NCBI GenBank assembly: GCA_964511875.1
Contig: CAZEHS010000004.1
Coordinates: 5,028 to 69,027 of the forward strand
Length of the DNA: 64,000 bases
From: an uncultured Peptostreptococcaceae bacterium
Lineage (GTDB): Bacteria > Bacillota > Clostridia > Peptostreptococcales > Acidaminobacteraceae
Direction of reading: 5' to 3'
Part shown: positions 169 to 50,552 of the stretch, in pieces
How positions within the stretch are numbered: the stretch's first letter is position 1
Layout of the letters: the number at the start of each line of letters is the position of its first letter
The notes under the pieces: generated by a model
Seen by the model: the letters and a program-made list of their open reading frames with translations, nothing else
Told to the model about the DNA's origin: nothing
Database searches by the model: none
Made by a program: the position numbers and the translations under genes

Positions 169-611
169 TGGCAACTCCTCTACATTTTATATTACATCTA
201 TTAGATGAACGAATTAGGATACCGCGGTTTTACGATTTACACGAACGTACGCGTCGAGATTTTCTACTTCGATTTGGGGTCACTGCGTAGCTTTGACACG
301 GTTAATTACTTCTCCTTCTTCATTATACCTTAAAGGTTCTTGGATAATCTTTCATTTTCTTTGGGGCTGCCATATAACTACGGTGTTGACGAAACAACCC
401 GTCGTAAACACACCCATTTCAATAAGGGTTGATGACGGTCATATATACCTCTAAATCATATGTATATATGACAAGTGTCGTTAACACTACCTATTCATGC
501 TAATTTTGACGCTGATCAAATCACTCAATGGCAATGTGAAATGGTTAGGATGAGGGGGTGATTCACAACCGACACAACGAATTTCCAATCATTCAAAAAT
601 ATGTATTCATA

Positions 612-648
612 TCAATAAAACAAAAGCCCAATCCATCCGGACTGGGCT
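612..648 (-). terminator. Intrinsic terminator of the repressor gene
   Basis: Hairpin AGCCCA-N12-TGGGCT (625-648), followed on the minus strand by TTTTGTTTTATT, directly after the stop of 652..981. Confidence 0.6.
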
Positions 649-651
649 AAT

Positions 652-981
652 TTATTTCTTTTCCCCTTTATGTTTCGCTTTCAACCCTTCAATAATCAAC
701 TTAACCGCCGCAATATCCTCATCAGTAAGCCCGTCGATATCTTTGGTACTAAAGGCCAGACCCTCAGTTTCCCATCTGCGAGTGGGCGTTTTACCAAGAA
801 GATAGTCAACCGACACGTCAAAAAAATTAGCGATCTCAACTAAAGTGTCATGCTTAGGCTGTTTGAGCTCAGATTCATAACCTGCAACAGTTGATCGGGT
901 TTTATTTATTTTCTGTGCAAACTCTTCTTGTGTCAGACCAGATTCTTTTCTGAGTTCTTTCAACCGACTAGCGAAGTTCAT
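652..981 (-). CDS. XRE-family HTH transcriptional repressor (cI-like)
   Basis: N-terminal HTH_3-type sequence LKELRKESGLTQEEFAQKINKTRSTVAGYESELKQP. AAGGAG RBS. Divergent from a second XRE gene. Confidence 0.85.
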   Translation of the reverse strand: MNFASRLKELRKESGLTQEEFAQKINKTRSTVAGYESELKQPKHDTLVEIANFFDVSVDYLLGKTPTRRWETEGLAFSTKDIDGLTDEDIAAVKLIIEGLKAKHKGEKK

Positions 982-1000
982 ATCATCAGCTCCTTCTAAA

Positions 1001-1029
1001 ATTTTACGCTTTAATGTTTCTAATGTAAA
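1001..1029 (-). promoter_or_regulatory. Putative sigma-A promoter of the repressor gene
   Basis: On the minus strand TTTACA-N17-TAAAAT, just upstream of the AAGGAG RBS and ATG at 981. Confidence 0.4.
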
Positions 1030-1044
1030 CAGTCAATAGCAAAT

Positions 1045-1122
1045 AGTCCTTAAAAGGAACAAAAAGTGGTTGACAATGTTCCTTAACGGGACTATGCTTT
1101 ATACAAAGTCACCGAACGGGAC
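1045..1122 (+). promoter_or_regulatory. Cro-side promoter flanked by operator-like repeats
   Basis: TTGACA (1070-1075)-N17-TATGCT (1093-1098). AGTCCTTAAAAGGAAC (1045-1060) and the inverted AGTCCCGTTAAGGAAC (reverse complement of 1078-1093) flank the -35 box. AACGGGAC recurs at 1115-1122. Confidence 0.45.
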
Positions 1123-1136
1123 AAAGGAGGTGTGGC

Positions 1137-1382
1137 ATGAGAGCGTTTATGAAAACGAAACGTGAGGAACTGGGTTTCACTCAGGCTGAAACTGCTGAGA
1201 AGGTTGGTATTGCACGTACAACATATACAAATATTGAACTTGGTGAAAAAAATCCTTCATTCGAAATTATGCTAAAGCTCAAAGAAGTTTTTAAAGTGAA
1301 AAAAGACGATATTTTTTTAAATACAAATGTCCCAAAGAGTGACAAAACGGAGTGCGGCGGGCATAAAGAAGCCACTATGTGA
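1137..1382 (+). CDS. XRE-family HTH regulator (Cro-like)
   Basis: LGFTQAETAEKVGIARTTYTNIELGEKNP HTH_3 motif. GGAGG RBS. Divergent from the repressor. Confidence 0.8.
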   Translation: MRAFMKTKREELGFTQAETAEKVGIARTTYTNIELGEKNPSFEIMLKLKEVFKVKKDDIFLNTNVPKSDKTECGGHKEATM

Positions 1383-1542
1383 TGAGGGATAGATAAAAAG
1401 ACAGCCTGCTTTCGCAGGCCGTGAAGGTGAGCCGCATGGACAGCGGCTATAGTAACAGTGTATCAGGGGTGCGGATTACCACTTACAGCTTCACTCAATA
1501 AAACAATCCAATTCTACAGAAAACCCGGAAGGAGGAACAAAT

Positions 1543-2004
1543 ATGAAAACACAGAGCATTTACAAAACAGCCCGGGAAAGCGGACCCAAAGAGTACAGCA
1601 TTGAGGCTTCGGCCAGAGAGCTGCATGTATCGCCATCATCCCTTTATGACTACGAGCGGGGAACCACCATTCCCCCGGAAGACGTCGTGTGTAGGATGAT
1701 TGAAGTATACGGTGCAGGATGGCTGGCGTATCAGCACATTCAGCAGAACACACTGTTGGGAGCACGGTTTTTTCCATCGGTGAACATTCAGAACCTGTGC
1801 CAGGCAGTGCTTCAACTGGAAAAGGAACTGGAGGATGTCGAGAAACAACGGCCTGAGCTGGTACGTATAGCACTTGGCGGAAGCATTGATAAAGCCGAGA
1901 GCAAACGGTGGGATAAGCTTTGTAAGGAGTTTATGGAGGCGGCAGGGGTGCTGCTGGCACTGAACGCTTGGAATCCGATGAAGGCAGGTGGCGGGCATGC
2001 ATAA
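1543..2004 (+). CDS. Phage HTH-domain protein
   Basis: GGAGG RBS. SIEASARELHVSPSSLYDYERGTTIPP resembles an XRE-type HTH. Confidence 0.55.
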   Translation: MKTQSIYKTARESGPKEYSIEASARELHVSPSSLYDYERGTTIPPEDVVCRMIEVYGAGWLAYQHIQQNTLLGARFFPSVNIQNLCQAVLQLEKELEDVEKQRPELVRIALGGSIDKAESKRWDKLCKEFMEAAGVLLALNAWNPMKAGGGHA

Positions 2005-2431
2005 GGTTTCAATTGCTATTAATCCGGTGCAGATTGTATTACAGCAGATGGATAAACTGAACCGTTTGGCAGAGAAGGTAACTGATCCTGAAAATGCCTG
2101 CAGGATTGCAGGGTGCATCGCAGAGCTTGGGGCTGCGGTGATAGGGAAGGCGGATGGGGAAATGAATCTGCAACTGGATGATATTCCGGATGGCAACGAC
2201 ACCATCAGTTATAAAGAAGCCTGCCTGTTTCTGAGGATGGGTGCCACTTCACTGAACCGTGAAATTGCAGAGAATCCTGATTTTCCGGTTTATCAGCCAG
2301 GGGGCAAGGGCGGCAGAAAGTATTTCAGTAAAAAGCAGCTGATGATCTGGCAAGAGAAAAAGCTGCGTGAACCGAAGAAGGAGCAGATAATGCATAAGGC
2401 GACACCGGGCAAGCTGTGGCAGGTGCAGTAA
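1997..2431 (+). CDS. Excisionase/MerR-like HTH DNA-binding protein
   Basis: C-terminal ISYKEACLFLRMGATSLNREIAENPDFPVYQPGGKGGRKYFSKKQL is HTH_17/excisionase-like. I prefer the ATG at 1997 over the track's GVG start at 1988. Confidence 0.5.
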   Translation: MHKVSIAINPVQIVLQQMDKLNRLAEKVTDPENACRIAGCIAELGAAVIGKADGEMNLQLDDIPDGNDTISYKEACLFLRMGATSLNREIAENPDFPVYQPGGKGGRKYFSKKQLMIWQEKKLREPKKEQIMHKATPGKLWQVQ

Positions 2432-2599
2432 GGAGGTTTATGATTCTTGCAACAGCACAACCCAAAGCTCCGGCACGATCCGGAGAAAAAGAAAACGCCA
2501 CCGCAAATGCGATAGGCGCTTAAGAAAAATCACATGTTCAGTATACCAGAGGTACAGAGGGAAGGGAAGACGGTGAAACTCACCGGAAAAGGAGGCTCT

Positions 2600-2956
2600 A
2601 TGCTGATTCGATGCAATGTGGAGTACAAACGCTTTGATGACTTTGAAAAGGCCATGCTGGCCATGGGGCATTCGCTGCCGGGTGCGGATTCCATCGATAT
2701 CGATGAAACCTATATGGATGGGCAGTTCCGGATTCATAACGAATGGCGCTGCGGCATCTCATTCCGGAACCACGGCCTGACAGTGTTCATGAAAGGCACC
2801 AGCCTGCGGATCCTCTGCGAAGATGACCAACTGGCCATCCAGGCATTTCTCGCCCTGAAAGGGATCGGCAACTTTCATCCCTGCCAGCCTGCCACTATTC
2901 CGCCCGAAATTTACGGCATCCGGGAACAACGGTGGGCCACAGAAATACTGCCATGA
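2600..2956 (+). CDS. Hypothetical phage protein
   Basis: AAGGAGG RBS 7 nt before the ATG at 2600. Co-oriented with its neighbours. Confidence 0.45.
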   Translation: MLIRCNVEYKRFDDFEKAMLAMGHSLPGADSIDIDETYMDGQFRIHNEWRCGISFRNHGLTVFMKGTSLRILCEDDQLAIQAFLALKGIGNFHPCQPATIPPEIYGIREQRWATEILP

Positions 2957-3261
2957 AACCGGTCCTGATCGCCTGGACACAGCCTCAACACTGCGGCGAT
3001 TGCAGTATGACCGTGCCGGAGGGCTGGCAGGAGCTGAAATACTCAAGCGGCGGCCCATACCTTGAAAAACGGTGCTGTTCTTGCGCGGAGGTGCATTATG
3101 GGAATGCCTTATCTAATCTGGCTGACGACCTTCCCAAGAAAGTACGGCGTTCTGGCCAGAATAAAAAGACTGATAAACCGATGACCGAAGCCCCGCTTCT
3201 GGGGTTGGCAGGCAGTGTGGACTATGTGATCAAGAACGTTCGGAATGTGAGTGAATCTTAG
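2953..3261 (+). CDS. Hypothetical Cys-rich phage protein
   Basis: ATGA start/stop overlap with the preceding gene. Contains CGDC and CCSC motifs. Confidence 0.4.
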   Translation: MKPVLIAWTQPQHCGDCSMTVPEGWQELKYSSGGPYLEKRCCSCAEVHYGNALSNLADDLPKKVRRSGQNKKTDKPMTEAPLLGLAGSVDYVIKNVRNVSES

Positions 3262-3303
3262 CGAGCGCTCCTTATGACGACTTAAAAGACAGGAGGCACC
3301 GAA

Positions 3304-4338
3304 GTGCCAAACAGAATCATCAAAGAGACAATCTGCACCAGTGAGAACCTTGACCAGTTGAGCCCGGAGGCAGAAGTATTCTTCTACCGGCTGATGGTGA
3401 ACTGCGACGACTTCGGCCGCTTCTCTGCCAACCCTCAGATCCTCCGGAGCAAGCTTTACCCGCTGAAGGTAGATATCGTTCGGCCGGAGATGGTGGAAGC
3501 CTGGCTCATAGAGCTCATCGGTTCGGAACTGATATTCCTCTACGAAGCTGAAGGCAAGCGCCTGCTACAGATACAGAGCTGGAACAAACACCAGCAGAAG
3601 CGTGCAAAGCACAGCAAGTATCCAACATATGACAGCACCTGCATGAAACTGATATCACATGATATCGGATGCAAACCCAAAGATATCCGGTGCGATGCAA
3701 ATGAAATCACGTGCAGTGCGGAAGCTGTCACATGCGGTGCTGACGAAACCACAGGAAATCATCTGCCAGCAAATGTCCCCGAGAATCGAGAACCGAGAAA
3801 CGAGAAACGAGAATCGATTAAAGATTCTTCGTCGCACCTCACGGCCGACGGAGCTGAACCGGACATGCCTGAAGAATTAAGTGATCCAGAAGAATCCCAA
3901 GCGTCGGAAGAATCCACACCGAAGGAACCGGTGGAACCGACTGAGCTCAAAACGATATATAGCACCAGCGGACCGGAATACAAACTGGCGGAATACCTGC
4001 TCGGCAATATCAGAGAGCTGGACCCCAAAGCGCGGCAGCCAAACCTTCAGGGCTGGGCCGCAGACATAGACAAGATGATCCGCCTGGATAAACGGTCCGC
4101 ATCGGAGATCAAAGACCTAATCGACTTTGTGCAGAGTGACACATTCTGGCGATCGAACATCCTCTCAGGCAAGAAACTGCGGGAGAAGGCTACTACTCTC
4201 ACCGCCAAGATGAAAGAAAAATCAACGAAAGGAGGACCCGGCTATGGAAGCAATTTCAAGCCTGCTGGTAAAAGTTCAGAAACTGCAGCAGATCCAAGGT
4301 TCAGCGCCAGTAGATATAGCAGCAGGCAAAGCGGTTAA
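3304..4338 (+). CDS. Phage replisome organizer (DnaD-like C-terminal domain)
   Basis: N-terminus MPNRIIKETICTSENLDQLSPEAEVFFYRLMVNCDDFGRF is typical of the phage replisome-organizer N-domain. An acidic low-complexity linker follows. C-terminal LAEYLLGNIRELDPKARQPNLQGWAADIDKMIRLDKRS is DnaD-like. GTG start with AGGAGG RBS. Confidence 0.7.
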   Translation: MPNRIIKETICTSENLDQLSPEAEVFFYRLMVNCDDFGRFSANPQILRSKLYPLKVDIVRPEMVEAWLIELIGSELIFLYEAEGKRLLQIQSWNKHQQKRAKHSKYPTYDSTCMKLISHDIGCKPKDIRCDANEITCSAEAVTCGADETTGNHLPANVPENREPRNEKRESIKDSSSHLTADGAEPDMPEELSDPEESQASEESTPKEPVEPTELKTIYSTSGPEYKLAEYLLGNIRELDPKARQPNLQGWAADIDKMIRLDKRSASEIKDLIDFVQSDTFWRSNILSGKKLREKATTLTAKMKEKSTKGGPGYGSNFKPAGKSSETAADPRFSASRYSSRQSG

Positions 4339-5053
4339 ATGCGCCATCTGCCAGGATGATAAATTTATCCCCGGCGAAGGAGGAAGGCTGAAACGCTGTC
4401 AGTGCGTAGATATGGAAATCTCCATGGAGCGCCTGAAGAACAGCGGACTGGCCGCAGCTTTCGGCAGCAAACGCCTTGATACATTCCGGCTGGAAGGGCG
4501 ACCGGCTTCGATTAGGGAGGCATACAACATGGCAATCCGCTATGTGGAACAGTTTGAAACCATCAGGCAGTCCGAGAACAACTGGCTGGCCTTGCTAGGC
4601 CAGGTCGGCTGCGGCAAAACCCACCTGACCATCGGCATCGCCAACGCCCTGATGGCGAAGAACATCAGCGTGGTGTACATGCCTTATCGGGATGAGATCA
4701 CCCGGATCAAGCAGGTAATCACCGATGAAGCGGAATACAACCGGGTTATGAACCGCCTGAAAAACGCCCAGGTGCTGGTCGTTGACGACCTGTTCAAAGA
4801 GGCCCTGGTGAACCGGAACGGGGAGAAGGTCTTGAACGAATCCGACCTGCGGATCATGTTCGAACTCTTTAACCACCGCTACTTTAAACGCCTGCCGGTC
4901 ATCATCAGCAGTGAGCACTACATCAGCCGATTGCTGGACATGGATGAAGGGTTGGGCAGCCGTATCTTCGAAATGACCAAGGGGAACCTGGTTGAACTGT
5001 GGGCAGAGAAGCCTCAGGACCGGGCCGCCATGAACTACCGAATGACAGGATGA
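4244..5053 (+). CDS. DnaC/IstB-like AAA+ helicase loader
   Basis: Walker A GQVGCGKTHL and Walker B VLVVDDLF. N-terminal CAICQ..CQC zinc-ribbon-like motif. AGGAGG RBS. Overlaps the upstream gene by 95 nt. Confidence 0.8.
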   Translation: MEAISSLLVKVQKLQQIQGSAPVDIAAGKAVKCAICQDDKFIPGEGGRLKRCQCVDMEISMERLKNSGLAAAFGSKRLDTFRLEGRPASIREAYNMAIRYVEQFETIRQSENNWLALLGQVGCGKTHLTIGIANALMAKNISVVYMPYRDEITRIKQVITDEAEYNRVMNRLKNAQVLVVDDLFKEALVNRNGEKVLNESDLRIMFELFNHRYFKRLPVIISSEHYISRLLDMDEGLGSRIFEMTKGNLVELWAEKPQDRAAMNYRMTG

Positions 5054-5065
5054 GGAGGACAAACC

Positions 5066-5353
5066 ATGCGGAACGACATCATGGACCTGAGCGAAGCTAT
5101 CAGCATCGAAAACATGAAAGCCCACGGCCTGGAAGTGGGCATGCAGGTCGAAGTGCTGGAACAGAAATCCTATGCCCGGCCGGAACGGGAGCACAAAGAA
5201 ACCGGCATCAAACCCCGCAGCATCCGGGGGGAAGTCCTGGCCGTCAACGACCGGATCTTCACCCTGAAAACCGAAACCTTCCGGCGGATCGAGAGCTTCC
5301 ACCTGAGCGATCTCTTCAGACCTGGGGGCATCAGCGTGAGGGTACGGTCATGA
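5066..5353 (+). CDS. Hypothetical phage protein
   Basis: AGGAGG RBS. Co-oriented with its neighbours. Confidence 0.45.
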   Translation: MRNDIMDLSEAISIENMKAHGLEVGMQVEVLEQKSYARPEREHKETGIKPRSIRGEVLAVNDRIFTLKTETFRRIESFHLSDLFRPGGISVRVRS

Positions 5354-5422
5354 TCACCAACCGGCGCATCGGAAACCGTCAGAGTAGGGGACACCACAAC
5401 CTGAAGACCATGGAGGTACAGC

Positions 5423-5656
5423 ATGGACAAGACTGAAATCACAGCCCTTGAAAAAACCAGGGCAAACCACCGCATCCGAAGCACCTGCACCGGCCATCTG
5501 TTCGAGCGGATAGGGGATTACGGCCAGCACCGCTGCCGGTACTGCGGAGCAACCGCCGACGCCGGTTTTGTCGAAGGTTACCTGCAGGGCATAGGCCACA
5601 GCCGCAGTAACATCAAAGCGCCCCATGCCCGGGAAAGCTGGGTGCGGACCACATGA
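5423..5656 (+). CDS. Hypothetical phage protein
   Basis: GGAGG RBS. Contains HRCRYCG. Confidence 0.4.
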   Translation: MDKTEITALEKTRANHRIRSTCTGHLFERIGDYGQHRCRYCGATADAGFVEGYLQGIGHSRSNIKAPHARESWVRTT

Positions 5657-5678
5657 ATGCGATAACAAGGAGCAGCCA

Positions 5679-5933
5679 ATGGGCCGAAAAGTAGGGGATC
5701 CCTCCAGCAAATATGCCTACCAGCCTGAACGGCTGGAGAAGGACATAGCCGAGAAAGCAATGCTCCGGGAAACGGCCGGCCAGACCATCCGGGAACACAT
5801 CCGCCGGGCTGTGTATTACTCGGGCCTGCAGCCGGAAACCGGGATGCAGATAGTGCTGGAGGAAGTACGGAAGGTTTACGCCGAACTGAATGATATGGAG
5901 GAGAGAACAGATGGACATTACCAAACTGATTGA
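5679..5933 (+). CDS. Hypothetical phage protein
   Basis: AAGGAG RBS before the in-frame ATG at 5679, which I prefer over the track start at 5625. Confidence 0.4.
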   Translation: MGRKVGDPSSKYAYQPERLEKDIAEKAMLRETAGQTIREHIRRAVYYSGLQPETGMQIVLEEVRKVYAELNDMEERTDGHYQTD

Positions 5934-5954
5934 AACCGCTCACCCGGAGGTTAC

Positions 5955-6080
5955 ATGCTTAAAAAAATAAAGTGCAGACACTGCGGCCGAACCATATGTG
6001 AGCTCAAAGGGCAGATCATCATCCACTGCAGGCGATGCGGTAAAGTCAATTACATAACCACCACAGAGAAACGCGTATAG
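5955..6080 (+). CDS. Small zinc-ribbon protein (Com-like), absent from the ORF track
   Basis: Own translation: MLKKIKCRHCGRTICELKGQIIIHCRRCGKVNYITTTEKRV. Two CxxC pairs. GGAGG RBS. Confidence 0.5.
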   Translation: MLKKIKCRHCGRTICELKGQIIIHCRRCGKVNYITTTEKRV

Positions 6081-6148
6081 CGGACCAAGCGTCCCAGGGT
6101 TAACACACACCCTGGGACTATTGTTTTTACTTAGAAGGGAGAACCCAC

Positions 6149-6721
6149 ATGGACAAGACCAAAATGAGAAAGACCGAATGGAGACTCACCCAGTATTACC
6201 GCCGGAAGGCCGCCATCGGCCGATTCGAACGGATGCTTACCAAGGGACGGGAACGGATCACCCAGATTGAAAAGGATATCAGGAATTGCAGCTACACCAT
6301 CGAGAACCCGCTACAAAGCGTCACCTATGACGGCATGCCCAAAGGCAAACAGTCCCCCGGCAGTGCCATCGAACGGAGCCTGATCCGAGCCCATGAACAG
6401 CTGGAAACCGAAATGTGCCGCCTCATCGAACGGGAAGCCCACCTGATCACCTGCATCACCCGCACCCGGGACAACATCGACCTCATGGAAGAAGCGCTCT
6501 GTGTTCTGGACGAAGAACAGCAGCTCATCGTAGAACTCCGTTATGGCAAAGGCCAAGCCTACAGGCAGATGGAAGAGCAGTTGATGATGGACTACACCTC
6601 CGTCCACCGCCGAAATTCAATCATCATGGAACGGCTGACCGAAGAACTGGACCGCATGGGCACCACGCTCCTGGCCGAGTACGACCTAGTAATCGAAATT
6701 GAAGAGCCCATAAGCGGCTGA
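6149..6721 (+). CDS. Phage late-gene transcriptional activator, sigma-70 region-4-like (ArpU/RinA-type)
   Basis: LDEEQQLIVELRYGKGQAYRQMEEQLMMDYTSVHRRNSIIMERL resembles a sigma region-4 HTH. Its position after the replication module fits this role. Confidence 0.5.
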   Translation: MDKTKMRKTEWRLTQYYRRKAAIGRFERMLTKGRERITQIEKDIRNCSYTIENPLQSVTYDGMPKGKQSPGSAIERSLIRAHEQLETEMCRLIEREAHLITCITRTRDNIDLMEEALCVLDEEQQLIVELRYGKGQAYRQMEEQLMMDYTSVHRRNSIIMERLTEELDRMGTTLLAEYDLVIEIEEPISG

Positions 6722-6803
6722 AGAAGGAACATAAGCCAGGCTTACGGTCAGCAATGCCCCAGCCTGGCTTTTGCATAAGCTAAACACGATCAGGAGGAGA
6801 CCC

Positions 6804-7355
6804 ATGAACTACGTACAGCCCATTAAGAGCAAAGCGAAGATAGATGAAATAGAAAGCATTTTGGAAGCCTGGCACCGGAAATACCGGATCATGTTCCTCA
6901 TGGGCATATACTCCGGCCTGAGGATCAGTGACATCCTGCCCTTGAAGGTGAAGGACGTGTACGGCAAGGACCACATCGACATCCGGGAGAAAAAGACCCG
7001 GAAGGCCAAACGGTTCCGGATCAACAGGAACCTGGCCGACGCCCTGAGCAAGTACTGCATCGGCAGACCTGAAGACAGCTACCTGATCCCGTCCGGACGG
7101 CGGGCCCACAAGCCTCTTGGATCACGACGGGCCTATGACGTCATCAAGGAAGCTGGAGGGAAGGCCGGGATGGAGAGCCTGGGCACCCACAGCATGCGCA
7201 AGACCTTCGGATTCCACTACTACCAGCAGACCGGCGACATCGTCACCCTGCAGAAGATATTCAACCACGCCACCACCCAGATCACCCTGCGGTACATCGG
7301 CATCGACCAGGAAGCCATCGACGACACCATGTACAGTTTCAGCTTCAGGAACTAA
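6804..7355 (+). CDS. Small tyrosine recombinase (catalytic domain only, 183 aa)
   Basis: Catalytic-residue pattern GLRISD ... HSMRKTF ... NHATTQITLRYIG (R, H-x-x-R, H, Y). AGGAGG RBS before the ATG at 6804. Confidence 0.75.
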   Translation: MNYVQPIKSKAKIDEIESILEAWHRKYRIMFLMGIYSGLRISDILPLKVKDVYGKDHIDIREKKTRKAKRFRINRNLADALSKYCIGRPEDSYLIPSGRRAHKPLGSRRAYDVIKEAGGKAGMESLGTHSMRKTFGFHYYQQTGDIVTLQKIFNHATTQITLRYIGIDQEAIDDTMYSFSFRN

Positions 7356-7530
7356 CCCTCTGAAACCGTTGAAATAAACGTAGTGTACTACATTAACTGC
7401 TTAAAACGGGATGAACAGGAATAAATGAGAAACATGAAAGCCCGGAAACCATTGAAAAGTATGGGGATGAGGCAAGGTTGGAGTTTATGCCTACAATGAT
7501 GCGATATGACAATAAAAGGACGGTGTAAAA

Positions 7531-7854
7531 ATGGACATAAAAGACGTTGAAAAGCATATTGAATTCTATGAGAGATTGAAGCAAATGTTATCCAAAGAGC
7601 CCAGTAATGATACAGAGGCAATCTTCCTGAAATACATTGAGTTAAGGCGGACGGCAGACGTAGCTGCCTACATGAATGATCAGGGCCATAGGATACAAGG
7701 TGCCAAGAAGAAGCGGCTCTACATCAACACCGACATCACTGCCATCCTGGATGATCCGGAAGCCGAGCACCTGGTTGAGCCGGATGTGTATAGCCTGGTC
7801 AGGCGGATGCAGAAGTCGGGGAGGCTGCTGCAGCGCCATCTTCTGGAGAATTGA
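7531..7854 (+). CDS. Hypothetical protein
   Basis: ORF with a weak RBS. Last co-oriented gene of the element. Confidence 0.35.
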   Translation: MDIKDVEKHIEFYERLKQMLSKEPSNDTEAIFLKYIELRRTADVAAYMNDQGHRIQGAKKKRLYINTDITAILDDPEAEHLVEPDVYSLVRRMQKSGRLLQRHLLEN

Positions 7855-8206
7855 ATAGAGAACGGCATGAGACAAAGCAAGGAGGGTGTAAGCTAAACGC
7901 ACACCCTTCTTCCATGCAATCAATCATGTAACCGGTAAAGGCAAGGATCCGTGGTATCCCCCCCACCCTCCATATCCATTTTTATACTTTAATGGACCGT
8001 ATAGGGTAGGTGTTTCCAATAGAGCGTTTCCCACAAACCTTTTTTCCGGCGGGGAAACGGGCAGAAAAACCACTGGTTGAAATCCGGTCAAACAAGCGAT
8101 TTTCAACAGTGGAGGGGCATCGGGGCATATGAGGATAAACGAAATATATAGGTCGAAAATCATAGGGGGATTCGCCGGAAAAACACGAGGAATCGCTGGG
8201 TATGAG

Positions 8207-27279: not shown

Positions 27280-27411
27280 TCAGCCATTTCTTCGCTTAAG
27301 CAGATTAATCTCCAGGGCGTTTGAAGCGGCTTTTTTATTGTTTTCGATGGCATGAGCGTATATGTTAGCAGTTGTTGATTTCTGAGAATGACCAGTAATT
27401 TCTCCGGCAAA
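27280..27411 (-). pseudogene. Tyrosine integrase C-terminal fragment
   Basis: HFAGEITGHSQKSTTANIYAHAIENNKKAASNALE carries the GHS..TT..IY.H catalytic-tyrosine region. Homology stops exactly at repeat copy A. Confidence 0.65.
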
Positions 27412-27543
27412 ATGAAGTGAACCTTTGCTTCGGGTGGAGTTTCTACTCCATCCGAAGCTTAGTTGAACGGATCCAGGGCCTTTACAGTTCTCCACTCGCC
27501 GCTTATAGAAGCGGGAGTCTTAGAACTGTTAGGCATCGGATAA
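27412..27543 (+). repeat. Structured ~130-nt repeat family, copy A (132 nt)
   Basis: ATGAAGTGAACC...CTGTTAGGCATCGGATAA. Hairpin 1 is GCTTCGGGTGGAGT/ACTCCATCCGAAGC. Hairpin 2 is CAGTTCTCCACTCGCCGC/GCGGGAGTCTTAGAACTG. Confidence 0.9.
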
Positions 27544-27573
27544 AACCGCCTGTCCTGGAAGGATGGCGGTGGG
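27540..27573 (+). repeat. 34-nt direct repeat, copy 1 (31/34 identical to 28331-28364)
   Basis: ATAAAACCGCCTGTCCTGGAAGGATGGCGGTGGG. It also forms the terminator-like stem ACCGCC/GGCGGT downstream of the cupredoxin gene on the minus strand. Confidence 0.8.
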
Positions 27574-27614
27574 TGCTGCTTAATTCGACTTTTGAGTGAT
27601 TTGCTGGGATGCTG

Positions 27615-28330: not shown

Positions 28331-28364
28331 ATAAAACGGCCTGTCCTGGAAGGGTAGCGGTGGG
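28331..28364 (+). repeat. 34-nt direct repeat, copy 2
   Basis: ATAAAACGGCCTGTCCTGGAAGGGTAGCGGTGGG. Embedded in the minus-strand terminator region of the hydrolase gene. Confidence 0.8.
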
Positions 28365-28393
28365 GGATGCAGGCGGTTTATTGTAGATAGTCT

Positions 28394-40530: not shown

Positions 40531-41619
40531 TCATACTATTTCATATTGAATTTTCTCTATCCGCAAATCACTTTCTTTTGTAAGGTCGATTGGAGTGTTA
40601 AGCAAGACCTTAGTGGTGTGATCGATAGGTATCACAATCGGCCGCATTGGGTCGCTCTCCTGTACGGTTGCCACTAATGCAGTTCTCTTATCACTGAGTG
40701 TCACAAGACAACCTTCCGGGTAAGGCATGATTTTTCTAATGAATAGATCTACCAATTTGGAATCCAGTTGTTTACCGCTCGCCGAAATCATGTGCTGCAA
40801 TGCTTCATTCGGCGATATAGCACGGCTATATGACCGGTCTGATGTTATGGCATCGTAGATGTCTGCAACTGCAACAATCCGGGTAAGTTGATGAATTTCA
40901 TGATTAACCAGATTCCTGGGATATCCGCTGCCATCCATTTTTTCATGGTGCTCTAAAACAATGATTTTCATAAAGGCAGTGGCAAAGGAGAAATCCTTGA
41001 AAATTTCGTATCCTTTCTTCGGATGTTCTTTTATTTTTATGAATTCCTGAATATCCAGTTTCCCATTTTTCATAAAGACATTTTCATTGATAAAGTTCAT
41101 GCCGATATCGTGAAATAATGCACCCAAGAAGACATCACGCTGGCGGTTTCGATCCAGGCCCGCATCAATTCCTAACAGGAGTGACAGGACGGCTACATTC
41201 AAAGAGTGAGAAACCGTATAACTTTCACGGATTTTAATGTCCGTAAAACTCAGGTATTGACGAGTTGTACGGATGATTTCATATTGTATATGTTCCGCTA
41301 ACTCCAGAATTCTATTTAGTGGCTTCAATACACTTTCATGGACATTATTCCCCGACTCATGACGCAATCGGATGATATCATACATATTCTTCAGTTCTCG
41401 GGTGATCTCTATCTTCAGATCGGTTGATATCGGAGGTGTTAACTGATTATGACTGTATCGGTCATTGACATACACCGAAAACACACCGGCATTTTTAAGT
41501 TGCGACACAATTCGATCCGATACCGATAAGCCTTTTTTTACAAGAATTCGGCCAAAGTGATCATAAACATCTTCCGCTAAATGTAGAGTAACGGCATATT
41601 CAATCGGAACGATTCGCAT
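40531..41619 (-). CDS. HD-GYP domain protein (putative c-di-GMP phosphodiesterase)
   Basis: ALFHDIGM (HD) and LEHHEKMDGSGYP (GYP) motifs. GGAGG RBS. Confidence 0.85.
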   Translation of the reverse strand: MRIVPIEYAVTLHLAEDVYDHFGRILVKKGLSVSDRIVSQLKNAGVFSVYVNDRYSHNQLTPPISTDLKIEITRELKNMYDIIRLRHESGNNVHESVLKPLNRILELAEHIQYEIIRTTRQYLSFTDIKIRESYTVSHSLNVAVLSLLLGIDAGLDRNRQRDVFLGALFHDIGMNFINENVFMKNGKLDIQEFIKIKEHPKKGYEIFKDFSFATAFMKIIVLEHHEKMDGSGYPRNLVNHEIHQLTRIVAVADIYDAITSDRSYSRAISPNEALQHMISASGKQLDSKLVDLFIRKIMPYPEGCLVTLSDKRTALVATVQESDPMRPIVIPIDHTTKVLLNTPIDLTKESDLRIEKIQYEIV

Positions 41620-41639: not shown

Positions 41640-41733
41640 ATGAAGTGAACCTTAGTTGAACGGATCCAGGGCCTCTACAGTTCTCCACTCCCGCTTACGA
41701 GGCGGGAGTGGAGAACTGTTAGGCATCGGATAA
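41640..41733 (+). repeat. Structured repeat family, copy B (94 nt; lacks hairpin 1)
   Basis: ATGAAGTGAACCTT|AGTTGAACGGATCCAGGGCC... Hairpin 2 is a perfect 17-bp stem, CAGTTCTCCACTCCCGC/GCGGGAGTGGAGAACTG. Confidence 0.9.
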
Positions 41734-41756
41734 ATAAAAAAACAGGCCTAGGCCTG
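41734..41756 (-). terminator. Intrinsic terminator abutting repeat copy B
   Basis: CAGGCC-TA-GGCCTG followed on the minus strand by TTTTTTTATTT. Confidence 0.6.
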
Positions 41757-42013
41757 TCATCAAAACAATCTTATTAAATAACGACCAGCAGCTTGGCAAT
41801 CATAGATACTAATATCCGTAGACCCATAGCTTTGCGTCCCAACTTTTCAGATGGTTTGCCAATATGCAGTTGTTTGTTGTCTTAATGATACCACAATGGA
41901 GATATTATTAGAATGCCCTCGAAGAGCATGGAGCCATTGTGATTGAGTTGTGTTAAAGCTACTTATGAATAAGACTTGAAAAACACGTTCATTTTGTGAC
42001 AGAATGAATTGGA

Positions 42014-42427
42014 TTGTTAGTTTGCAATACTGTCCGGCTGAGTATAGAAATATTGATTATGCAATTCGTTGATATGGGAGGAATTATGGAAAAATGGGCC
42101 TCGTTTCATCATGATAAGCTTGATGGAACCGGATATCCATTCCGACTGGATGAATCAAAAATTGGAATTGGCGCTCGGATTCTGGCAGTGGCGGATGTGT
42201 TTACAGCATTGTCGGAAGATCGCCCTTACCGTAAAGCGATCTCAAAAGATAAATTGATGGAAATAATGGGGAATATGGTTGAGACACGCTGTTTGGATAA
42301 ACATGTAGTTAATAATTTGATGCAGAATTATGATGATGTAATGAACTATGTCCAGGAATTCAAAAATAGTGATGGAAGAAATTACAAAGACATATATCAG
42401 AAGTATTTAAAAGTAAAGCAGATATGA
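42014..42427 (+). pseudogene. 5'-truncated HD-GYP fragment
   Basis: FHHDKLDGTGYPFRL...ILAVADVFTALSEDRPYRKA. No HD motif or credible N-terminus upstream. Confidence 0.6.
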
Positions 42428-49298: not shown

Positions 49299-49322
49299 AA
49301 TGAGGATGAACATGAAGTGGCT

Positions 49323-49451
49323 ATGAAGCGATCCTTGGTTCAGGTGGAATTTCTACTCCATCTGAACCTTAGTAGAGCGGATCCAGGGCCTCTACAGTTC
49401 TCTACTCCCGCTTTAGAAGCGGGAGTCTTAGAACTGTTAGGCATCGGATAA
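49323..49451 (+). repeat. Structured repeat family, copy C (129 nt)
   Basis: ATGAAGCGATCC...CTGTTAGGCATCGGATAA. Hairpin 1 is GGTTCAGGTGGAAT/ACTCCATCTGAACC. Confidence 0.9.
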
Positions 49452-49507
49452 TTGAGCATTTAAAACAAAAGAAGGTGATGAATTTACGGAAGCAGTATGA
49501 AATAAAT

Positions 49508-49519
49508 TTCCAGGTGGAA
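49508..49519. promoter_or_regulatory. Putative enhancer palindrome TTCCAGGTGGAA
   Basis: Matches 45853-45864 at 11 of 12 positions, with similar A-rich flanks. Confidence 0.5.
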
Positions 49520-49535
49520 GAAAAATACTCAGTGT

Positions 49536-49823
49536 GTGCCACCATTAATCCGTTGTGTCAGTATTATAGAGTTCTTTTCAAAGCATTGTACTTTGATAGC
49601 AACGATGACCACATCAGAAACTGAATGCTCTTTTTGGTTTGATTCTCATCCCGCGCGCCTTATAAAGGAAGCATATCCACACCATAAATGTATAGACATT
49701 ATCACTGCCGAGCGAGGTAAGCAATTTGATCCCGTAATTGTGGATGCGTTTATCAAGGTTGAGAAGCAATTTGAAGAGGTTTTATTTTGGCAAAACCTCT
49801 GTGATCAGTACAATGTTGGTTAA
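49536..49823 (+). pseudogene. Possible extreme C-terminal remnant of an HD-GYP-type protein
   Basis: Only KEAYPHHKCIDIITAERGKQFDPVIVDAFIKVEKQFEEV resembles the conserved tail (G.qFDP.vv.aF) of HD-GYP proteins. Confidence 0.35.
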
Positions 49824-50385: not shown

Positions 50386-50422
50386 TTATGGTCAGCTTCC
50401 TCAAGACCTTGTACACCACGAT

Positions 50423-50552
50423 TTATCCGATGCCTAACAGTTCTAAGACTCCCGCTTCTAAAGCGGGAGTAGAGAACTGTAGAGGCCCTGGATCCGCTCT
50501 ACTAAGCTTCAGATGGAGTTGAAACTCCACCTGAAGCCAAGGATCGCTTCAT
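50423..50552 (-). repeat. Structured repeat family, copy D (130 nt, inverted)
   Basis: Its reverse complement reads ATGAAGCGATCCTTGGCTTCAGGTGGAGTTTCAACTCCATCTGAAGC...GTTAGGCATCGGATAA. Confidence 0.9.

Follow-up and report, generated by a model that had tools for sequence, protein, structure and literature searches.

Four copies of a short non-coding repeat probably represent an IS200/IS605-derived palindrome-associated transposable element (PATE), to judge from their sequence, cut and joined by the peel-and-paste mechanism of that family. They lie in the window, by which we mean the whole 64-kb stretch analysed from an uncultured Peptostreptococcaceae bacterium (GenBank assembly GCA_964511875.1, contig CAZEHS010000004.1). 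In the broader sense of a mobile, non-autonomous DNA element, the identification is very likely to hold. PATEs are already known as a kind of element, having been described in Haloquadratum walsbyi (PMC3119063) and Geobacillus stearothermophilus (PMC10055086), and a PATE with IStron ends and the TAM TTGAT has been reported in C. difficile, a member of the Peptostreptococcaceae (bioRxiv 10.1101/2023.11.20.567912). The present family is undescribed in the resources searched. All four features of the original PATE definition (PMC3119063) are found in it. Like PATEs, it lacks terminal inverted repeats and target-site duplications, carries palindromes near its ends, is too short to encode a protein, and has a targeting oligonucleotide of 4–5 nt on its 5′ side only. 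A one-sided flank, a look-alike end, the absence of inverted repeats and duplications, and a palindrome near each end together form the signature of IS200/IS605 elements and PATEs (PMC3201880, PMC3119063).

We read the family as mobile DNA because its neighbours are unrelated, three of its eight known copies are truncated, two subfamilies coexist, and a contig breaks inside copies C and D. The narrower assignment is no more than probable because no transposase was found, the two hairpins are dissimilar, neither the guide register of IS608 nor the reported strand bias is reproduced, and the empty site is a single one.

Copies, boundaries and the target motif

The first-pass annotation had placed copies A at 27412-27543 (+), B at 41640-41733 (+), C at 49323-49451 (+) and D at 50423-50552 (-), and a repeat search together with an nhmmer profile of the 64-kb window returned the same four and no others. 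They are described here on the top strand, the reverse complement of that earlier alignment (Table 1). The full-length element measures 124-128 nt, and all four copies fall within 23 kb at unrelated sites. Copy C is 98% identical to D, which is inverted relative to it 971 nt away, and 91% identical to A. An invariant 22-mer (AGAACTGTTAGGCATCGGATAA) and an invariant 24-mer (CGGATCCAGGGCCTCTACAGTTCT) each occur four times, against none expected from shuffles. As the first reading of this DNA had proposed, the repeat is non-coding: indels and early stops disrupt its frames, no ORF is conserved, and it is too short for a transposase. Peptides from its open frames found nothing among 5.8 billion predicted proteins, and no promoter or terminator built into the element was found.

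Table 1. Repeat copies, their flanking motifs and hairpins, and associated features of the window
Feature	Position	Strand	Remarks
Copy A	27412..27539	-	128 nt; right end abuts integrase C-terminal fragment
Copy A TAM TTTAT	27540-27544	-	From T-tract after hairpin behind cupredoxin gene
Copy B	41640..41729	-	90 nt; lacks right-end hairpin; between riboswitch terminator and HD-GYP RBS
Copy B TAM TTTAT	41730-41734	-	From riboswitch terminator tail
Copy C (focal)	49323..49447	-	125 nt; top strand (presumed active) is the minus strand: CCGATGCCTAACAG...GGATCGCTTCAT
Copy C target motif (TAM) flanking left end	49448..49452	-	ATTAT on minus strand
Copy C left-end hairpin, long, imperfect	49381..49449	-	Core is hairpin 2 of the first-pass annotation
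Copy C right-end hairpin	49337..49368	-	Hairpin 1 of the first-pass annotation
Copy D	50427..50552	+	126 nt; top strand is the window's plus strand
Copy D TAM TTTAT	50422-50426	+	
Paralogous terminator-like hairpin, no element after it	28331..28370	-	Ends TTTTAT
c-di-GMP-I riboswitch	41784-41870	-	RF01051, 78.3 bits
Riboswitch terminator	41741-41758	-	With the riboswitch, target context of copy B
HD-GYP phosphodiesterase gene	40531-41619	-	Downstream of riboswitch

The family is very rare among public genomes. Scanning 185,579 species genomes (one per species) for exact 20-mer matches returned two loci, L001 and L002, both in uncultured Peptostreptococcaceae MAGs; a two-block pattern scan of metagenome contigs added one more, L003; and BLAST revealed a second, 5′-truncated copy in L001 at 7086-7185. 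The public scans thus yielded three further loci with four further copies (L001a, L001b, L002 and L003), all gene-less, which brings the known copies to eight. No match to the element appeared in plasmids and phages (BLAST) or in viral contigs (pattern scan), and a literature search with its sequence strings returned no matching paper. The truncated copies are B, L001a and L001b. Both copies on the L001 MAG contig, at 1347-1460 (+) and 7086-7185 (+), about 5.6 kb apart, are degenerate, one being without the right-end tail and the other without most of the left end. Two subfamilies coexist, distinguished by right-end tails ...GGTTCACTTCAT and ...GGATCGCTTCAT, and copy A shares more identity with L003, which comes from another metagenome (96%), than with copy C of its own genome. 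A Logan contig from an independent sample (L011, SRR13723396) is 100% identical to the window and comes from the same strain; it ends within both C and D, as is usual when an assembler meets a multi-copy repeat. Repeats of 126 nt thus break assemblies, and they also create spurious small ORFs.

The boundaries of the element were fixed by an empty site. Another Logan contig (L004) encodes an HD-GYP protein 96% identical to that beside copy B, preceded by the same c-di-GMP-I riboswitch and terminator and then by CCTGTTTTTTATTTATCTTGAATTGGGAGG (TTTAT|CTTGAAT), with no element. The minus strand of the window at copy B reads ...CCTGTTTTTTTATTTAT|CCGATGCC...(90 nt)...CACTTCAT|CTTGAATTTGGAGG..., so that between the filled and the empty site nothing has been duplicated or lost, junction placement being ambiguous over a shared 3-nt ATC. 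AT stands at both junctions. The limits of this indel are the edges of similarity among all eight copies. A 74% relative (L006) likewise lacks the element at the position of copy B. Copy B against L004 is the one true empty site obtained, and the absence of a target-site duplication is an observation on that site. None was obtained for A, C or D, where the available relatives differ in gene order: exact-protein matches for NhaC and cupredoxin were not on record, and the contigs with DUF1801 homologues (L007-L010 and L012) diverge from the window before the element boundaries.

The left flank is TTAT in all seven copies that keep that end and TTTAT in five of them, the exceptions being ATTAT in C and GTTAT in L002; immediately after TTAT, every such copy starts CCGATGCCTAACAG. 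The right end is C(T/G)TCAT in every copy that keeps it, with TTCAT in six of seven and GTCAT in L002, and is followed by a variable base (C, T or A). The target pentanucleotide is thus one-sided, restricted to the left flank, while the element itself terminates in a TEM-like TTCAT that differs from the TAM TTTAT at position 3. The TAM is already present in the empty site, and also in a paralogous terminator: the hairpin at 28331-28370 is 88% similar to the flank of copy A, with the similarity stopping exactly at TTTTAT. Because of the empty site and the conserved left flank, TTAT must be counted as flanking target. The start ATGAAG(T/C)GA and the end CTGTTAGGCATCGGATAA that had been listed as common to all copies are indeed present, but the last four bases of that end (ATAA, or TTAT on the top strand) belong to the target and not to the element, so that the earlier ...GGATAA includes four target bases. 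The element ends, CCGATGCCTAAC... and ...GATCGCTTCAT, have no conserved inverted match, and terminal inverted repeats are therefore absent, in agreement with the first reading, which had also seen no target duplications.

The paralogous hairpins lie behind adjacent minus-strand genes for a cupredoxin and an alpha/beta hydrolase, at 27540-27579 and 28331-28370, and are 88% identical; the first carries copy A and the second is unoccupied. Another observation concerns copy C. The 8 nt that close the right end of A-type copies (ATGAAGTG) recur at 49312-49319, 3 nt outside the right end of copy C, where the top strand reads ...CGCTTCAT AGC CACTTCAT...; chance occurrence is unlikely, and this second ATGAAGTG may be what remains of an earlier copy, or it may serve as an alternative site of cleavage.

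Two dissimilar hairpins and a proposed mechanism

Along the top strand, the target motif TTTAT and a presumed cleavage point are followed by the element, which runs from CCGATGCCTAA through a left-end hairpin, long and imperfect, a linker with CTAA at its end, and a right-end hairpin with a conserved internal mismatch, to 10 nt, TTCAT and the second cleavage point. Imperfect subterminal palindromes thus lie at both ends of the same strand.

In the right-end hairpin, 13 pairs are accompanied by a conserved mismatch, A.C on the top strand and a G.T wobble on the opposite one; the hairpin is preceded by CTAA and followed by 15 nt ending in TTCAT. Its irregularity falls at the same stem position in every copy, as A.C in six and as an equivalent bulge in L002. 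Across the seven copies that retain this hairpin, including those from other organisms, both partners have changed in five of the 13 pairs, and pairing holds in 97.8% of cells. None of 500 shuffles reached the observed values, and sliding the partner by one column lowered pairing to about 50%. The first-pass annotation had described a 14-bp stem with two compensatory double changes; the stem comprises 13-14 bp, both changes are real (G:C versus A:T, and G:C versus C:G), and the expanded alignment bears out the covariation. A compensatory change, GGAGT/ACTCC to GGGGT/ACCCC, occurs in the second L001 copy and likewise in L002.

The left-end hairpin is about 65 nt long, imperfect, and reaches the end of the element; at its foot in copy C, TGGAT pairs with the AT of the TAM together with CCG. 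It is almost invariant and so offers no evidence from covariation. The perfect 17-bp stem previously noted in copy B is there, but is only the core of this longer structure, while the 38 nt that B lacks relative to A are exactly the right-end hairpin, as had been noted. No sequence in the arms of one hairpin can be aligned with those of the other. Similarity of left and right palindromes, typical though not universal for PATEs, is therefore not seen here; the palindromes were described as identical only ‘in some cases’ (PMC3119063). Both strands fold far better than shuffles (z about -8, with DNA folds too), and on the opposite strand the right-end hairpin is fully paired through the conserved G.U. 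In every copy CTAA stands directly 5′ of the foot of both hairpins. It occurs four times in C, D and L002 (shuffling P about 0.001), an enrichment that is not consistent across copies.

We infer the enzyme, the single-stranded intermediate and current mobility, which would combine as follows. A Y1 HUH transposase (TnpA), encoded elsewhere in the genome and supplied in trans, would bind both hairpins in single-stranded DNA and cut after TTTAT and after TTCAT. The top strand would be released as a single-stranded circle, the donor being resealed precisely, and the circle would be pasted 3′ of another TTTAT in single-stranded DNA, with no bases duplicated. Such a target would explain where the copies lie. 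Copies A, B and L001a sit just after terminators because T-tracts followed by AT supply TTTAT, and L002 and L003 sit at the stop codons of convergent genes because ATAAA, the complement of TTTAT, overlaps TAA stops. The TAM thus predicts terminator tails and TAA stop codons as landing sites. Copy B looks as though its right-end hairpin was lost after insertion, by palindrome deletion between short CTT repeats; PATE copies elsewhere are similarly degraded by palindrome- or repeat-mediated deletion. Copy A, flanked on the left by a terminator and on the right by the interior of a dead integrase gene, is most simply explained as a recombinant of two former copies from which the intervening DNA was lost.

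The closest published motifs come from Geobacillus stearothermophilus, in which ISGst2 has the TAM TTTAT and the TEM TTCAC, ISGst5 has the TAM TTCAT, and PATE-like derivatives accompany both (PMC10055086). On these published motifs only, the present family shares its TAM with ISGst2 and has TTCAT in place of TTCAC; the TAM and TEM of ISGst2 itself differ at positions 3 and 5. ISGst2 and ISGst5 belong to the IS605 family and coexist with PATE derivatives in a host that is a Firmicute, as is the bacterium studied here. The ISGst elements carry tnpB or iscB with an omega-RNA, and their excision by a tnpA found for them was demonstrated (PMC10055086), whereas the present family is gene-less, has no omega-RNA match and has no tnpA found. 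It also differs from described PATEs in having no sequence similarity to any element searched, no parent IS found, and two unrelated palindromes, the left one unusually long (about 65 nt) and reaching the very end.

IS608 of Helicobacter pylori has the target TTAC 5′ of its left end and the cleavage site TCAA at its right end (PMC3201880, PMC5934647), and its guide sequences sit 5′ of the hairpin feet, the position of CTAA here (PMC3201880). The present family resembles it in the one-sided 5′ target, the look-alike right cleavage site, a fixed spacing between cleavage sites and hairpin feet (11 nt and 15 nt here, 19 nt and 10 nt in IS608) and the tetranucleotide 5′ of each hairpin foot. The target motif, in contrast, has 5 nt. 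The hairpins of IS608 are nearly identical, whereas those of the present family are dissimilar. Furthermore, the register in which the IS608 guides AAAG and GAAT pair with the cleavage sites is known, while both putative guides here are CTAA; the TAA of CTAA can pair with the TTA of the TAM, but the IS608 register is not reproduced for CTAA against TTTAT or TTCAT.

Competing explanations

If the repeat is mobile, it could have been moved otherwise, as a REP/REPIN served by a RAYT, by IS91-like rolling-circle transposition, or by a site-specific serine or tyrosine recombinase for which the shared AT would be the crossover point. The likeness to IS200/IS605 would in that case be superficial; we consider this unlikely. 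Among about 40 window ORFs scanned with Pfam there was no Y1 TnpA, Y1_Tnp, TnpB or any other transposase domain, as the first reading had also found. No transposase lies within 8 kb around the L001 and L002 copies, and no full-length IS with these ends was found in the 185,579 species genomes, the metagenome pattern scan or the plasmid and phage BLAST. The missing TnpA partner, the dissimilar end hairpins and the unmatched IS608 guide register would all sit more easily with different machinery, as would the strand placement of the copies. Positive GC skew and gene orientation indicate that the plus strand of the window is the lagging-strand template, and the top strand lies on the minus strand in A, B and C and on the plus strand in D, so that one copy in four fits the reported bias, a weak test at n = 4. 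The top strand of IS200/IS605 elements is reported to lie preferentially on the lagging-strand template (PMC5027513).

Single palindromes of 20-40 nt with a conserved GTAG head, clustered as inverted pairs, are characteristic of REPs. REPs, BIMEs and REPINs resemble the present family as short intergenic non-coding palindromes that often follow genes and whose movement is attributed to a Y1 HUH enzyme, but this family differs in its two unlike hairpins, its defined ends and its TAM/TEM pair. GTAG is not conserved in it: C and D carry the motif, and the A-type copies have GTGG and GTAA in its place. The window contains no RAYT. A conserved flanking tetranucleotide on one side is also a feature of IS91-type elements. 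The AT at both junctions makes a 2-bp crossover formally possible, but the sites of recombinases usually have a longer core in common, with dyad symmetry, and no such core is seen at the joined ends. The integrase fragment that copy A abuts could point to a recombinase, but it is a dead 43-codon remnant beside a tRNA fragment and is better explained as an old att/int junction. Against all of these alternatives, TTTAT/TTCAT closely matches published IS605 TAM/TEM pairs.

An improbable reading is that the repeat is an orphan omega-RNA gene, forming a trans-acting guide-RNA scaffold with the flanking DNA as guide and serving a TnpB or IscB nuclease encoded elsewhere, or else the recognition module for an undescribed HUH enzyme that reads two different hairpins. 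It is entertained because the left-end hairpin is unusually long and invariant and CTAA occurs up to four times. Were it true, insertions like copy B would rewire expression, in that case between the riboswitch terminator and the HD-GYP gene.

It is more doubtful still that the repeat is a structured RNA kept for a function at the RNA level, whether as a small RNA, 5′ leader, 3′ UTR element, or regulator of transcription or translation; a dedicated RNA of any sort seems very improbable. The first-pass annotation had offered a small or leader RNA beside an IS200/IS605 PATE-like or REP-like element. The PATE-like candidate is favoured by exact presence/absence, the one-sided target, the absence of duplications and inverted repeats, and the subterminal palindromes; the REP-like and RNA candidates are not supported. 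The folding of both strands, the covariation and the full pairing of the right-end hairpin through G.U would suit an RNA, as would copies in UTRs (B between riboswitch terminator and RBS, L001a between stop codon and terminator), which are open to being mistaken for regulatory RNAs. However, a DNA hairpin would be expected to show covariation in its palindrome just as an RNA would, and the element is cleanly absent from the 96% relative, with boundaries equal to those of the family. Rfam scans at the gathering threshold matched only the neighbouring c-di-GMP-I riboswitch, and relaxed scans over A, C and D gave noise (E > 0.5). No match to a known Rfam or IS family emerged in the resources searched.

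The sites of the copies also argue against an RNA. In the window the neighbours are unrelated (HD-GYP, an NhaC-like transporter, a histidine kinase and cupredoxin), and at the loci outside it a GGDEF-HD-GYP protein occurs with an M20 peptidase, a nitroreductase with MarR, and a lyxose isomerase with an aldose epimerase. Copies lie in 5′ UTRs, 3′ UTRs and operon spacers and beside pseudogenes, in both orientations relative to transcription; several are truncated, and none has a promoter or terminator of its own. The distances to downstream genes and the hairpins beside A and B had been reported correctly, but the suggestion of each copy pointing at a downstream gene fails as a general rule: outside the window, three of four copies abut the stop codon of a convergent gene, L002 and L003 exactly at the stop, leaving the protein unaltered. 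L001a lies between stop codon and terminator.

That the copies are inert relics, ancient duplicated intergenic sequence or leftover att sites that are not transposable, is scarcely credible: few copies exist in public data and several are degenerate, but the insertion polymorphism is exact, C and D are nearly identical, and four copies occupy unrelated sites in a short interval with a conserved target motif. A classical MITE is argued against by the missing terminal inverted repeats and the missing target duplication, a coding repeat or C-terminal extension by the broken frames, and an element tied to tyrosine integrases by the fragment beside A being a remnant next to a tRNA-Ser fragment. An integron attC, which would carry paired R''(RYYYAAC) and R'(GTTRRRY) boxes in cassette arrays served by IntI, was also rejected. 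GTTAGGC is present, but its partner is GCCTCTAC and not GCCTAAC, a coincidence with no inverse core; the copies are scattered in mixed orientation with no array, and the window ORFs scanned include no integron integrase.

Taken as a probable PATE, the repeat adds a cleanly delimited family with the motif pair TTTAT/TTCAT from an uncultured Peptostreptococcaceae-like Clostridium, a group whose PATEs are little catalogued. By itself the family opens no new question. If a cognate TnpA or TnpB is found, it would be a compact substrate for studying the recognition of two dissimilar hairpins.

Neighbouring features

The c-di-GMP-I riboswitch and its terminator are predicted to control the HD-GYP gene, and copy B adds 90 structured nt to the leader of that gene relative to L004. 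Two more HD-GYP fragments lie at 42014-42427 (+) and 49475-49823 (+). The second lies just inside copy C and matches only the last 65 residues of an intact 338-aa homologue on L007 (74% identity). L001a directly follows a GGDEF-HD-GYP gene, so that three of the eight copies stand beside HD-GYP genes; this adjacency is possibly chance in genomes rich in such paralogues. The 971-nt interval between C and D holds the HD-GYP fragment and a DUF1801 gene. Because the HD-GYP gene on L007 is intact and has a different downstream neighbour, the C-D segment must have been rearranged.

Beside copy A, a tRNA-Ser-like 3′ fragment at 27073-27122 matches an Rfam model containing plastid trnS (E 2e-7). ARAGORN called no tRNA anywhere in the window. 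At 27283-27411 (-), the C-terminal 43 codons of a tyrosine integrase match PHROG integrase families (E 7e-4) and do not align with the other integrase in the window. Together the two fragments look like the remnant att/int junction of an integrated element, with its upstream side cut off by A. At ~600-8000 lies an island of 50-57% G+C (about 42% elsewhere) with a strong A>T excess on the plus strand. It encodes Cro/CI-type regulators, DnaD-like and DnaC-like replication proteins and a short integrase-like ORF (6771-7355), and looks like a prophage remnant or a phage satellite.
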